Source of the DNA: Escherichia phage vB_Eco_F25
Sequence record: OP870144.1
DNA: 64,000 nt
Direction: 5' to 3' (one strand)
The translations under genes were made by a program, and so were the position numbers. The first letter of the stretch is position 1. Each line of letters begins with the position of its first letter. The notes beneath the pieces were generated by a model that was not told where the DNA came from, did not search any database, and was given only the letters and a program-made list of their open reading frames with translations. Of this stretch, positions 4,092 through 7,360 are shown piece by piece.

Positions 4092-4655
4092 TTATTTATC
4101 TAGTTTAGTTATTATAGCTTCTGCGGCAGCTTTTAGCTTAGATGCGGTGTTAATACGATTTTTAATTTCAGTATACGCATCGCCAAGAACATCAAGGCTA
4201 TCAGAATAAACGCTTACACTATTGCGTTCGCTATTTGAAATAGAACCTTTAGTTTTACGATCAAAATCGATGTACACGTCTTGAAGATCACGGGCTGCCT
4301 TCTTTGCATCATCCAATGCATCAAGAGCTTTATTCAAAGCATTAACGTATTTTTTAGTGTCGAACATATTCTTAGAAATTTTAACAGGCGCACGTTCAGG
4401 AGTAGCTAAGGCAGATTTAGGAACCTGAGCGCCAGATGCCAGTTTCTTAGAAATTTTGAAAAATGCTTTATTGAATTTATTTTCTTGACTCATCGTAAAA
4501 GAACTATTATCAATGTTATACATTTCAATAGCTTTAGCTTTCCACTTAAGAAAATCGCCACGGTCTTTTGGGTCCAATTGGAAGAATACTTTAGTAAGTT
4601 CTGCTTCAGATGGTAATTTTGCTGCTTCGGTTAAAAATTCGGCATAGGTTTTCAT
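4092..4655 (-). CDS. Internal (head-packaged) protein with capsid-targeting sequence
   Basis: 187 aa; N-terminus MKTYAEFLTE|AAK matches T4 IP CTS with gp21 (L/I)xE cleavage motif; AAGGA SD. Confidence 0.7.
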   Translation of the reverse strand: MKTYAEFLTEAAKLPSEAELTKVFFQLDPKDRGDFLKWKAKAIEMYNIDNSSFTMSQENKFNKAFFKISKKLASGAQVPKSALATPERAPVKISKNMFDTKKYVNALNKALDALDDAKKAARDLQDVYIDFDRKTKGSISNSERNSVSVYSDSLDVLGDAYTEIKNRINTASKLKAAAEAIITKLDK

Positions 4656-4744
4656 TTAAAATCCTTGAAATAATTTATCGGTCAGTTATTAATTATTTAT
4701 TACTTTGTTATTATCCGTAACAGCATTCTCTATGCGATTCAAAC

Positions 4745-4773
4745 TAAAAAGCCCCAACCTTTCGGTCGAGGCT
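4745..4773 (-). terminator. Rho-independent terminator
   Basis: 10-bp GC-rich stem with GAAA loop then U5 on minus strand; near-identical copy at 5300..5328. Confidence 0.55.
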
Positions 4774-4780
4774 AAGAATG

Positions 4781-5254
4781 TTATTTGATTTGTTTAGCAG
4801 ACCAAATGCGGTCTTTGATGATTTTTTGGAGATCTTCAACATACTCTAGGTCATGAGCATGTGGATTATCTTTGAAACTATAGGCACGGGCTAATTTTTG
4901 GCCTTCGGTTTTAATTACTAAAAGCTCTTTAAGGATAGCTTCATATTTAGCGATAATTCCTTTAACAATATTTTTTTCTTGTGCAGCTTTAGGATCTGCT
5001 TTAGGAGCAGGTTTACCGGAAGGTTTTTCGAAAGCCGCACCAGTAGCAACCAGACTTTTCCAGGCGGTGGTAACATAGTTACCCACAAAGCCTTCAGCTC
5101 TCATATCGTCGTAGAACTTGTACCGGGATTCGTCAGAAGCATCTTTATAAGAATATTTACCAGATTTAATAGCAGCAGTTGCTACAGCGCGAACATCTGA
5201 AGCGGATGCTTCATTTAACACCGCTTCATTTAAAAATTGAGCATATGATTTCAT
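4781..5254 (-). CDS. Internal (head-packaged) protein with capsid-targeting sequence
   Basis: 157 aa; N-terminus MKSYAQFLNE|AVL; AGGAAA SD; late promoter immediately upstream. Confidence 0.7.
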   Translation of the reverse strand: MKSYAQFLNEAVLNEASASDVRAVATAAIKSGKYSYKDASDESRYKFYDDMRAEGFVGNYVTTAWKSLVATGAAFEKPSGKPAPKADPKAAQEKNIVKGIIAKYEAILKELLVIKTEGQKLARAYSFKDNPHAHDLEYVEDLQKIIKDRIWSAKQIK

Positions 5255-5290
5255 CTTATTTCCTGTTTTAATTCGTGGTTTTAATATACT

Positions 5291-5298
5291 TATTTATA
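5291..5298 (-). promoter_or_regulatory. Late promoter TATAAATA
   Basis: Reverse complement reads TATAAATA about 35 nt upstream of the internal-protein gene start. Confidence 0.5.
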
Positions 5299-5299
5299 C

Positions 5300-5328
5300 T
5301 AAAAAGCCCCAACCTTTCGGTCGGGGCT
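5300..5328 (-). terminator. Rho-independent terminator after the tRNA/small-RNA cluster
   Basis: Minus-strand hairpin AGCCCCGACC-GAAA-GGUUGGGGCU followed by U5. Confidence 0.55.
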
Positions 5329-5379
5329 AAGCCTTGCGGCAACCTTGTCGGGGTTCCACCTGCTAAGGCAAGTGTTTGT

Positions 5380-5470
5380 ACGAAACGCCGGGATTCGAAC
5401 CCGGTTATTAAGCAGTTGACGCTACTCAATATTTTTAAAAGGCCATATCTCGACCATATCCGAACGTTCC
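5380..5470 (-). ncRNA. tRNA-like structured RNA (T-arm plus acceptor-like 3' end)
   Basis: Minus-strand CCGGG-TTCGAAT-CCCGG T-arm followed by 7-nt acceptor-like strand; no canonical cloverleaf found by eye; position matches where T4 carries small stable RNAs. Confidence 0.3.
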
Positions 5471-5644
5471 GTCAAAAACGCTACTCGGCTTACGGCAAAG
5501 ATATTTCCTCGAATCGATAATTCGGTGCGCCGTTTCTGCTGTGATATAAGGGGACATTAACAAAACATAAAGATTTATTAATGCCAGTCCTTAAACAGGG
5601 AACATCAGTCCGACGACTTGCCGGTAGCGACCCGGCTTCTTGTT

Positions 5645-5719
5645 TGGTATCCCGCCCTGGGATCGAACCAGGACCGCAAACTTAGAAGGATCGTATGCTA
5701 TCCATTACACCAGCGGGAC
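5645..5719 (-). tRNA. tRNA-Arg (anticodon TCT), CCA encoded
   Basis: Acceptor GTCCCGC/GCGGGAT, anticodon loop CTTCTAA, T-loop TTCGATC, 3' ACCA. Confidence 0.8.
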
Positions 5720-6341
5720 GTAATTTATTTAAAAGACAAGACAAATCGGAAATCTCATCTTTTTCTAAAACTACCAAATTTTCTAAAGCTTTCCATTTAC
5801 AAAGATCTCTATCTCTTTTATATCCTTTGACTTCTATATAAAAATCATAAGTGGGTAAATAAAAATCAGGAAAATAGAGATGTTCTGAACCTTCCCATTC
5901 GTAAGGAATTGGCTTTATTTTATTAGTATATTTGATATTGTGTTCTTTTAAAAACTTAGCAACTTTTAATTCCCAGGTCCCTTTAAATTTAAACCCGTCA
6001 AACTCATATGTTTTTACTCGACCAGAAACATTAGAAGCAGAATATGAATCAGGATTATCAAGAACAGCTTGCCGCATTCTTTTAGAATGTGCTTCTTTGC
6101 GTTCATTAGACCATACATATCCAGTATTGGCTTTTCTAAGTTTTTCTCTAGTTTTATCAGAGACTTTTATTTCTTTACCTAGTTCTTTGGCTTTGGTAAA
6201 TTGATTACTACCTTTAAGACCATAACGAGGGTTATTAGGGCCGCTCATATCTAATCTATTTGGGTTAGATTTGCACCGTTTTTCATGCTGCTTTAGTGAA
6301 TTTAAATTTTTACATTCTTTAGAACAATATTGACAAAGCAT
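5682..6341 (-). CDS. Free-standing putative homing endonuclease (Zn finger + NUMOD3-like repeats + PD-(D/E)XK-like motif)
   Basis: N-terminal CQYCSKEC...HEKRC; central SDKTREKLRKA / NERKEAHSKRMRQA; C-terminal FPDFYLP...YIEVKGY; second ATG has GGAG SD; last 12 codons and the stop lie inside tRNA-Arg. Confidence 0.65.
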   Translation of the reverse strand: MLCQYCSKECKNLNSLKQHEKRCKSNPNRLDMSGPNNPRYGLKGSNQFTKAKELGKEIKVSDKTREKLRKANTGYVWSNERKEAHSKRMRQAVLDNPDSYSASNVSGRVKTYEFDGFKFKGTWELKVAKFLKEHNIKYTNKIKPIPYEWEGSEHLYFPDFYLPTYDFYIEVKGYKRDRDLCKWKALENLVVLEKDEISDLSCLLNKLRPAGVMDSIRSF

Positions 6342-6410
6342 AATTTTCTCCATGAATTTTATATAGATATTTATTCATGGAGAAGTTGACTGCTCTACCT
6401 AATCAAAATA

Positions 6411-6484
6411 TGGCCCAGACCAGATTTGAACTGGTAACCTTTCCCTTATGAGGGGACTGCTGCTAACCATTGAGCTACAGGGCC
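6411..6484 (-). tRNA. tRNA with CAT anticodon (Ile2-type or Met)
   Basis: Acceptor GGCCCTG, D-arm GCTC/AATGGTT, anticodon loop CTCATAA, T-loop TTCAAAT; one acceptor mismatch in my reading. Confidence 0.6.
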
Positions 6485-6490
6485 TTGATA

Positions 6491-6548
6491 TGCTGATTGA
6501 CGGAATCGAACCGCAAGTGAGGTGCTCTACCTACTGAGCTAAATCAGC
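6491..6548 (-). pseudogene. Internally deleted tRNA-Thr-like remnant (about 57 nt)
   Basis: Perfect acceptor pair GCTGATT/AATCAGC, D-arm GCTC-AGTAGGTA-GAGC, anticodon 5' stem CCTCA + CTTG, then directly T-loop TTCGATT; only 72 nt lie between neighbouring tRNAs. Confidence 0.45.
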
Positions 6549-6556
6549 GAAATTAC

Positions 6557-6642
6557 GGAGGCGATAGGATTTGAACCTATGAGTCGCCGGAGCGACTGCC
6601 GGTTTTCAAGACCGGTGCATTAAACCACTCTGCCACGCCTCC
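6557..6642 (-). tRNA. tRNA-Ser (anticodon TGA)
   Basis: Acceptor GGAGGCG/CGCCTCC, anticodon stem CCGGT/ACCGG loop CTTGAAA, long variable arm, T-loop TTCAAAT. Confidence 0.85.
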
Positions 6643-6644
6643 AG

Positions 6645-6718
6645 TCTCCGCGGCAGGATTTGAACCTACGACATTCTGCTCCCAAAGCAGACGCTCTACC
6701 AAACTGAGCTACACGGAG
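6645..6718 (-). tRNA. tRNA-Pro (anticodon TGG)
   Basis: D-arm GCTC-AGTTTGGTA-GAGC, anticodon stem TCTGC/GCAGA loop TTTGGGA, T-loop TTCAAAT. Confidence 0.85.
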
Positions 6719-6730
6719 TAAATTAAATTT

Positions 6731-6802
<72 letters not shown>

Positions 6803-6811
6803 AAACTTTGG

Positions 6812-6895
6812 TACGAGAAGTGGGACTCGAACCCACAAGGAAATCATTCCGCAGCATTTTAAGTGCTGTGCCTTTACCAATTTGACCATTCTCGC
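6812..6895 (-). tRNA. tRNA-Leu (anticodon TAA), class II
   Basis: Anticodon stem CAGCA/TGCTG loop CTTAAAA, long variable arm, T-arm GTGGG-TTCGAGT-CCCAC. Confidence 0.85.
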
Positions 6896-6896
6896 G

Positions 6897-6969
6897 CTGG
6901 GAATAAAGGACTCGAACCTTTGCATCCTGGAATCAAAATCCAGTGCCTTACCAACTTGGCTAATTCCCA
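6897..6969 (-). tRNA. tRNA-Gln (anticodon TTG)
   Basis: Acceptor TGGGAAT/ATTCCCA, anticodon stem CTGGA/TCCAG loop TTTTGAT, T-arm AAAGG-TTCGAGT-CCTTT. Confidence 0.85.
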
Positions 6970-7038
6970 ATTATTAACAAAGGCTCTCAAGCAAGAACCC
7001 TTGATGATAGAGGGTATTAATCAGTGCGATATGAGTTA

Positions 7039-7064
7039 ATAATAACAAATAATTCTTAAAGCAT
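7039..7064 (-). promoter_or_regulatory. Possible MotA-dependent middle promoter for the tRNA cluster
   Basis: Minus strand: MotA-box-like ATGCTTTA, 12-nt spacer, TATTAT; about 70 nt upstream of tRNA-Gln. Confidence 0.3.
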
Positions 7065-7066
7065 AT

Positions 7067-7360
7067 TTACCATTTATGATAATACATGTTTACGATGCAT
7101 TCAAGACCCAAAGGATTCTTGAAAATATCATATTCAAGAGGACCTTTTTCTGTTTCGATAAAGAAATCAAAATTTACTGTATTAAATTTACGGTCTTCCT
7201 TTACTAATTTAACTTGAGAAGATGAACGGTCAATGTAAACCTTTTCAACTTCAAAACATGTTAAAATGCCATAATCATCAATCAAGGCTTTAGCTGCTTC
7301 TTGATCATATTTATATCCATTTTCAACGGATGATACTTTCGCATAAAGAATCATCATCAA
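7067..7360 (-). CDS. Hypothetical protein
   Basis: 97-aa ORF, overlaps upstream gene end (coupling). Confidence 0.55.
   Translation of the reverse strand: MMMILYAKVSSVENGYKYDQEAAKALIDDYGILTCFEVEKVYIDRSSSQVKLVKEDRKFNTVNFDFFIETEKGPLEYDIFKNPLGLECIVNMYYHKW

Follow-up and report, generated by a model that had tools for sequence, protein, structure and literature searches.

A candidate homing endonuclease gene occupies the segB slot in the tRNA cluster of a T4-like phage and ends within tRNA-Arg

We analysed a stretch of 64,000 nucleotides (nt) from Escherichia phage vB_Eco_F25 (record OP870144.1; the window, at its full length), in which an earlier sequence-only reading had pointed to a nuclease gene within the tRNA cluster. 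The genome is of the T4-like type (Tequatrovirus), and the window region 5200-7100 is matched by 785 phage records at 90-99% identity, mostly from T-even phages of Escherichia and Shigella. The tRNA cluster of T4 type lies on the minus strand (ARAGORN, Rfam) in the order Gln, Leu, Gly, Pro, Ser, (Thr), Ile(CAT), endonuclease open reading frame (ORF), Arg(TCT). The ORF between tRNA-Ile(CAT) and tRNA-Arg(TCT) runs from 6353 to 5682 on the minus strand and comprises 223 codons when counted from the first ATG. The ATG at 6341, giving 219 amino acids (aa), is the probable start, since a GGAG lies 6 nt upstream of it, the equivalent ATG is annotated in Dhakavirus IME341 and homologues begin M-x-C-x-x-C there; residue numbers in this text follow the 223-aa numbering, counted from the ATG at 6353. 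The ORF coordinates and tRNA calls thus confirm a 219-aa ORF in the tRNA cluster whose frame ends inside tRNA-Arg, as had been proposed, and the earlier placement of T4 segB at the same locus is equally correct: homology to T4 stops at 6403 and resumes at 5727, and in T4 segB sits in exactly that slot. A chance ORF is not what we are dealing with, because it matches PHROG 15137 ('endonuclease') at E 1e-40 and has hundreds of homologues. The elements that define the locus are as follows.

5645-5719, minus strand: tRNA-Arg(TCT), intact, identical to T4 tRNA-Arg (ARAGORN, Rfam).
5682-5719, minus strand: overlap of the ORF tail with tRNA-Arg, 38 nt, that is 12 codons plus TAA, corresponding to tRNA nt 1-38.
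5720-5728, minus strand: spacer remnant ATAAATTAC, what is left of a segB-derived spacer of 18 nt in the metagenomic contig L096, with a 26-nt deletion immediately upstream.
5682-6341, minus strand: endonuclease ORF, 219 aa plus stop (223 aa from the alternative ATG at 6353).
5728-6402, minus strand: mobile cassette, a stretch without T4 homology that fills the segB slot.
6411-6484, minus strand: tRNA-Ile(CAT), intact upstream neighbour and putative left homology arm, named tRNA-Met by ARAGORN.

The protein was examined with sequence profiles and an AlphaFold model. T7 endonuclease I entries are the only relatives returned by a PDB sequence search (E 1.5e-5 with the single sequence, 1.7e-6 with the family profile), and E128, D163, E174 and K176 align with the E...PD...ExK catalytic residues of that enzyme, which we take to be E20, D55, E65 and K67. 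Neither these four residues nor C7, C10, H23 and C27 vary among 23 homologues of 43-84% identity; the C-terminus past about aa 204 is variable across the same alignment. In Pfam the window protein has only sub-threshold matches, to Phage_endo_I (PF05367; E 1.6e-4), DUF7487 and zinc fingers, and NCBIfam returns negligible matches only; 18 of the 23 homologues match Phage_endo_I at E<=0.01. The model, with a mean predicted local distance difference test score (pLDDT) of 84, presents a finger made of a beta-hairpin of two short strands and a helix (17-26), a helical linker, an alpha/beta nuclease domain and a disordered tail (pLDDT below 50 for aa 215-223). The predicted nuclease domain has a restriction-endonuclease-like fold and resembles I-Bth0305I and Vsr at the level of the fold. 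From the invariant residues and the model, the N-terminus appears to form a C2HC zinc finger with C7, C10, H23 and C27 as putative metal ligands, and the parts of the protein can be delimited as listed here.

C7, C10, H23 and C27: predicted N-terminal C2HC zinc finger (residue invariance and model).
About aa 50-106: predicted helical linker (model).
About aa 115-204: predicted PD-(D/E)XK domain, T7-endonuclease-I-like, containing E128, D163, E174 and K176.

Much of what the sequence-only reading had seen in the protein withstands this scrutiny. The Cys/His cluster CQYCSKEC...HEKRC is present and its ligands are invariant; the segment FPDFYLP...YIEVKGY does belong to a PD-(D/E)XK core, the nearest known one being that of T7 endonuclease I; and the claimed absence of a GIY-YIG or HNH signature is upheld, neither giving a Pfam match at E<=1 in the window protein, so that the profile search places it in neither class. 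The two NUMOD3-like modules find no statistical backing in this protein: NUMOD3 (PF07460) gives no match at E<=1 in the window protein, and the 6 of 23 homologues that do match (best E 1.9e-5) provide a hint at the family level only. A domain order reversed with respect to the classical seg/Tev enzymes had also been put forward, and the DNA-binding part is indeed predicted at the N-terminus and the nuclease at the C-terminus, but this order has a precedent in I-Bth0305I with its C-terminal nuclease domain. The family is large: a profile search with clustering at 50% identity gave 295 clusters at E<=1e-30 and 1965 at E<=1e-10. In the literature, the coverage of which was incomplete, neither this family nor the splitting of phage tRNA genes by endonuclease genes was found described, so that an earlier description is possible.

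The distribution of the gene indicates that it is mobile. An identical copy is present in one other Tequatrovirus, HEMP5, the only one of the 785 records matching the tRNA region that carries the gene at this locus (1/785). Copies of 97-98% identity occur in two Dhakavirus genomes, IME341 and EcWhh-1, likewise between tRNA(CAT) and tRNA-Arg and with the same 38-nt overlap. The block 6489-5643, covering tRNA-Ile, the ORF and tRNA-Arg, is 97% identical to both of these Dhakavirus genomes, as against 70-84% for the flanking genes (window versus IME341). The empty site is found in Dhakavirus PSD2002 and 005, where tRNA-Ile(CAT), 8 nt and tRNA-Arg follow one another, and further empty sites are found in Lazarusvirus and Kuttervirus. 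The ratio of nonsynonymous to synonymous substitution rates (dN/dS) is 0.11 against IME341 (13 synonymous and 6 non-synonymous differences), 0.10 against L096 and 0.20 against CkP1; the gene is under purifying selection, including after the change of its C-terminus described below. By these comparisons it appears intact and recently mobile, with a transfer between the genera Tequatrovirus and Dhakavirus evident from the identity profile. Since presence/absence polymorphism, transfer between genera and purifying selection coincide, we regard it as a mobile gene of the homing type. The proposal of a distinct, free-standing homing family therefore holds as regards a free-standing mobile gene, whereas its distinctness is tempered by entries already in databases under 'endonuclease' (PHROG 15137, DUF7487).

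In order to understand how the ORF came to end in a tRNA gene, we compared its 3' end with those of its relatives. Codons 212-223 (RPAGVMDSIRSF) and the TAA at 5684-5682 fall within nt 1-38 of tRNA-Arg, and the stop codon is T36-A37-A38 of the anticodon loop, that is the third anticodon base followed by A37 and A38; the earlier description, with the last 12 codons and the stop in the 5' half of tRNA-Arg and the stop in the anticodon loop, is thus accurate. This tail is not homologous to the C-termini of the relatives in the alignment of 23 homologues. The closest relative outside the 97% group, the metagenomic contig L096 (84% protein identity), agrees with the window in its upstream elements and in the tRNA-Arg that lies downstream, and its ORF has a stop of its own (...IQIKP*), followed by an 18-nt spacer before tRNA-Arg. 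That spacer (1250-1267) shares homology with the final ~20 nt of T4 segB, the segB stop among them. Relative to L096, the window and IME341 carry a 26-nt deletion in the alignment, which took the native stop and most of the spacer.

These observations do not bear out the suggestion that the gene inserted exactly at the tRNA boundary: L096 stops 18 nt short of the same tRNA, the deletion belongs to the window lineage, and the edges of the cassette lie in spacers (6402 and 5728), with a relic of the segB 3' end carried along. By the alignment, the fusion to tRNA-Arg is a secondary outcome of the 26-nt deletion and not a mark of insertion. Because the L096 spacer derives from the 3' end of segB, the cassette replaced segB, and the segB-like spacer is direct evidence at the sequence level that one homing endonuclease gene displaced another at the same site. 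The empty Dhakavirus sites lack the ~9 nt of segB-derived spacer, and the fused form, still accompanied by that remnant, entered Dhakavirus later.

Upstream of the coding sequence the cassette contains two further elements.

6346-6384, minus strand: RNA hairpin with a 12-bp stem (TTCTCCATGAAT / ATTCATGGAGAA) and a 15-nt loop; free energy -23 kcal/mol, z -4.3.
6383-6402, minus strand: orphan tRNA-like relic TTAGGTAGAGCAGTCAACTT, belonging to the cassette and found in IME341 and L096 too.

The predicted hairpin buries the Shine-Dalgarno GGAG (6351-6348) and the first ATG, with the ATG at 6341 covered by an outer stem. Boxes resembling late promoters, AATAAATA (6375-6368) and TATAAAAT (6363-6356), are situated in the loop and next to it, and relatives share this hairpin and late-promoter layout, often with a perfect TATAAATA. 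The same arrangement has been described for I-TevI, I-TevII, I-TevIII, segB and mobE (PMC2988022), and because the layout matches theirs we infer by analogy that the window gene would be expressed late and under control of the hairpin.

The relic extends from the D loop and arm across the anticodon stem's 5' strand as far as nt 34, breaking off at the anticodon. The 64 kb contain GGTAGAGCA only twice, in this relic and in tRNA-Thr. In 22 of 61 loci an orphan tRNA 5' half that ends at the anticodon precedes the start, above the 99th percentile of the 1542 windows used as control (1% rate). Naming the parent tRNA of the window relic by the anticodon proved unsound, the apparent TCT being made by the first bases of the insert. 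Nor does the relic behave, as a general rule, as a direct repeat of the 5' half of the downstream tRNA: local alignments are weak (scores 12-33) and the sequences differ, and in Kuttervirus PhaxI the downstream tRNA is a different tRNA(CAT) brought by the cassette. A recurrent layout, with an intact tRNA(CAT) and the endonuclease gene 40-75 nt downstream, is seen in the window (6383-6484) and in loci L015, L017, L029, L030, L043, L059 and L090; where inspected (the window, L015, L017, L030 and L043), a partial tRNA relic of about nt 15-34 lies between tRNA(CAT) and the gene. It may serve as a left homology arm or as an operator of the I-TevI kind, or it may be a fossil.

We then considered whether the tRNA context is a habit of the family. 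All annotated phage homologues examined reside in tRNA clusters (Karamvirus CkP1, Lazarusvirus Apostate, Kuttervirus PhaxI, Kujavirus Kuja, Tulanevirus IME13 and Angelvirus PX29). Across 59 non-redundant loci, drawn from 79 IMG/VR loci and from phage-database loci, 20 family ORFs end inside a same-strand tRNA and 8 more stop <=12 nt before one (28/59 in total); 23 of these 28 partner tRNAs have a CAT anticodon, and the stops reuse conserved tRNA bases, either T8-A9-G10 or T36-A37-A38. As a control, other ORFs with a downstream tRNA in the same loci stop inside it or <=12 nt from it in 28 of 59 cases, compared with 28 of 35 for the family, a moderate enrichment (odds ratio 4.4, Fisher p 0.002). 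Overlap of an ORF with a tRNA was accordingly discarded as a hallmark of the family, control ORFs showing it commonly. Unrelated ORFs also often terminate in the next tRNA, frequently at T8-A9-G10 (TAG), and 11 of the 59 control ORFs overlap the downstream tRNA; examples in CkP1 (L003) are the ORF at 74-601 with the tRNA at 592-664 and the ORF at 4651-5145 with the tRNA at 5128-5200.

Pairs of empty and occupied sites provide stronger evidence than the overlap. In Acinetobacter phages, a tRNA(CAT) that is intact in Konradin bears in Apostate a clean 664-nt insertion at its anticodon; the position is compatible with C34|A35, the flanks are 98.6-99.2% identical, and the junction creates the stop of the ORF. 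In CkP1, PX29, L023, L097 and L098, ARAGORN in intron mode detects tRNAs split in an equivalent way around the gene, which brings the loci with a tRNA(CAT) split at the anticodon to six, one of them (Apostate/Konradin) being a clean empty/occupied pair. The window gene has its closest outgroups in L097, L098 and CkP1 (67-70% identity). In Kuttervirus, tRNA(CAT) is intact in SFP10 (L093 784-859), and in PhaxI (L010) a cassette replaces its nt 28-70, where a hairpin and the gene come after nt 1-27 of the resident tRNA, then another, different tRNA(CAT), which is complete, and some 64 nt. A group I intron within the tRNA was considered and rejected, none appearing in either a gathering-threshold or an E-value scan of Rfam, which shows no intron and tRNAs only in window 5200-7100 and in L001, L003, L009 and L010.

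Two of these loci call for a separate remark. The complete tRNA(CAT) that the PhaxI cassette (L010 1929-2764) brings with it differs from the resident one and has an AT-rich D arm; it looks as though the endonuclease travels with a substitute, possibly cleavage-resistant, tRNA. In PX29 (L013, 1900-2664), the endonuclease copy is degraded by frameshifts and stops and still lies between tRNA halves with perfect acceptor and anticodon stems.

Some peculiarities were noted in the tRNA genes beside the cassette of the window. The two carriers, the window and HEMP5, share variants that T4 lacks, namely TATCA in place of the encoded CCA after tRNA-Thr (window 6485-6490) and GGGCCA in place of GGGTCA at the tRNA-Ile 3' end (window 6413), and these may represent a co-conversion tract. 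The window tRNA-Thr (6491-6548, minus strand) has a 15-nt internal deletion (GTAATGAGGATGTCG) that starts right after T34 of the anticodon, the point at which insertions and relics of this family break. The gene is of full length in T4 and HEMP5; among the matches listed, all span 113-116 nt and not 101, as apparently do the roughly 475 full-length matches. Off-target cutting may have left this deletion, a single case, as a scar; it might also be a resistance allele or an error of sequencing. Resistance substitutions in the tRNA-Thr of HEMP5 were also considered and rejected, its allele being 96-97% identical over the 101-nt query to those of many phages without the gene.

Taken together, we consider it likely that the ORF encodes a free-standing homing endonuclease which cuts the DNA of gene-less phages in or next to a tRNA gene, and that it comes from a large, uncharacterised phage family. 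In such a scheme, the helical linker would serve as the DNA-binding part and the nuclease would probably act as a dimer. On early read-through transcripts the gene would be silent, with the hairpin burying the ribosome-binding site, and translation would proceed from transcripts of the late promoter inside the hairpin. The enzyme would then cut co-infecting genomes that lack the gene, in or beside a tRNA gene; judging from the relatives, the target would be the anticodon region of the tRNA or the tRNA-Ile/tRNA-Arg junction. Recombinational repair, with the conserved tRNA genes as homology arms, could spread the cassette. RNase P processing of tRNA-Arg would leave an mRNA without a stop codon, which may keep expression low.

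The comparisons also outline a history of the locus. The closest outgroups lie inside tRNA(CAT), split at the anticodon; the window lineage brought a 20-nt relic of such a tRNA half into a T4-type locus, where segB was replaced; 26 nt including the gene's own stop were then lost, so that translation now ends at the UAA formed by nt 36-38 of an intact tRNA-Arg; and the derived cassette finally entered Dhakavirus.

Several points weigh against a homing endonuclease. The Phage_endo_I score of 21.7 bits is below the Pfam gathering threshold of 29.1; the overlap between ORF and tRNA is by itself weak evidence, since it is common in such clusters; and the altered C-terminus of the window protein could impair the enzyme. 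The genes for tRNA-Ile and for tRNA-Arg are nearly identical in carrier and empty genomes, which leaves self-immunity unaccounted for unless the recognition site spans the disrupted spacer; a site of that kind would explain it. Finally, our literature search, with its incomplete coverage, turned up no cleavage activity, target site or homing cross for any member of the family.

The alternative that deserves most attention, although we judge it clearly the less probable, is that of a nuclease retained for its benefit, which in the manner of SegB excludes the tRNA region of a competitor or drives amplification of tRNA or anti-defence genes; it is compatible with homing. The gene occupies the segB slot and is under purifying selection, and SegB itself cuts many tRNA genes and excludes the T2 tRNA region (PMC2330249) and amplifies the tRNA-Tyr locus to escape the Septu defence, its homologues being frequently found beside tRNAs (PMC13096335). 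The extreme rarity of the gene at this locus (1/785 records) and the destruction of tRNA genes by the copies of relatives speak against such a benefit, as does the single copy found by tblastn, there being no amplification in the window. The stop loss and fusion to tRNA-Arg might instead mark a dying gene, whose mRNA RNase P would render non-stop; the native C-terminus and stop were lost with the 26-nt deletion, disorder is predicted for the tail and PX29 has a degraded copy. We nevertheless find an inactive relic quite unlikely, since between the two genera the post-fusion copies show 13 synonymous and 6 non-synonymous changes (dN/dS 0.11), all catalytic and zinc residues are intact, the fused form itself crossed genera, and the part past about aa 204 varies throughout the family.

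A housekeeping Holliday-junction resolvase, as labels such as 'putative endodeoxyribonuclease I' imply, would fit the nearest characterised homologue, the junction-resolving enzyme of T7, and annotations of Acinetobacter phages say as much, but it is extremely improbable given the sporadic distribution among close relatives, the constant position inside or beside tRNA genes, the additional zinc finger and linker, and a homology to T7 endonuclease I that covers only about 60 residues. T4-like phages moreover already possess endonuclease VII. Equally improbable is an intron-like element whose insert leaves the RNA in the relatives with split tRNA(CAT), the tRNA remaining functional and the window copy being an escaped derivative. 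The insertion point is where tRNA introns sit, and the tRNA halves are fully complementary in six loci, including the one with a degraded endonuclease gene; yet only about 40 nt of each insert are non-coding, the Rfam scans of L009, L010, L001 and L003 return tRNAs alone, and recent insertion can explain the intact halves. Scarcely better is the chance that a coding insert of ~665 nt is removed without a ribozyme, for instance by endonucleolytic trimming and joining by phage RNA ligase and kinase, with the window copy again as an escaped derivative; phages would then, if this is true, have a tRNA intron of a new kind.

If the ORF is a homing endonuclease, as we favour, it would add a catalytic lineage to these enzymes, a T7-endonuclease-I-like nuclease fused to a zinc finger. 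The family presents a selfish gene that invades functional RNA genes at their anticodon where no intron shields them, and the locus presents one homing endonuclease gene ousting another (segB) from a shared hot spot. Passage of the cassette from genus to genus would be accounted for by conserved tRNA genes acting as homology arms. In large phages, the turnover and decay that tRNA genes undergo may be due in part to the family, which constitutes a candidate set of tRNA-gene-specific nucleases.

Among known systems, SegB of T4 has the same place and, on the reading favoured here, a similar way of working. Both are free-standing genes in the tRNA cluster with tRNA genes as the presumed target and with the hairpin and late-promoter layout upstream, and SegB homologues also associate with tRNAs. 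They differ in the catalytic domain (GIY-YIG in SegB, PD-(D/E)XK in the window protein) and in the opposite order of domains, and the window gene has taken the physical place of segB, of whose 3' end about 9 nt survive; furthermore, SegB recognises the T-psi-C motif (PMC2330249), whereas in the window family it is the anticodon region to which the insertion sites point. Of solved proteins, sequence comparison detects T7 endonuclease I alone, over a match of ~60 residues that includes E...PD...ExK, but it is a 149-aa junction-resolving enzyme devoid of zinc finger and linker, and the window match stays below the Pfam threshold; because of their gene context and sporadic distribution, the window protein and its relatives are indicated to be mobile, site-specific enzymes, unlike T7 endonuclease I.

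Homing endonucleases with a PD-(D/E)XK fold are known from two cases. I-Ssp6803I comes from a cyanobacterial tRNA-fMet gene, where it lies inside a self-splicing group I intron; the anticodon loop of a tRNA(CAT) gene is both its site and its target. It shares the fold with the window protein, but its family (PF11645) gives no match to that protein in Pfam or PDB sequences, and no intron is detectable by Rfam at the window gene. I-Bth0305I (3r3p) gives no PDB sequence match at E<=10 with the single sequence or at E<=1 with the profile; its motif is EDxHD as opposed to E/PD/EVK in the window protein, so that the resemblance is one of fold only, and it is intron-encoded in recA, whereas the window family is intron-less and associated with tRNAs. 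The likeness to translational control of the I-TevI type is known for the window from sequence and folding alone. A 2012 survey of PD-(D/E)XK enzymes lists only the EDxHD and I-Ssp6803I groups as homing endonucleases and gives T7 endonuclease I a resolvase role only. Against this background, what would be new is a homing endonuclease that combines a new catalytic lineage with an intron-less habit of insertion into tRNA genes, and the interest lies in the behaviour of the family and in the displacement of segB.

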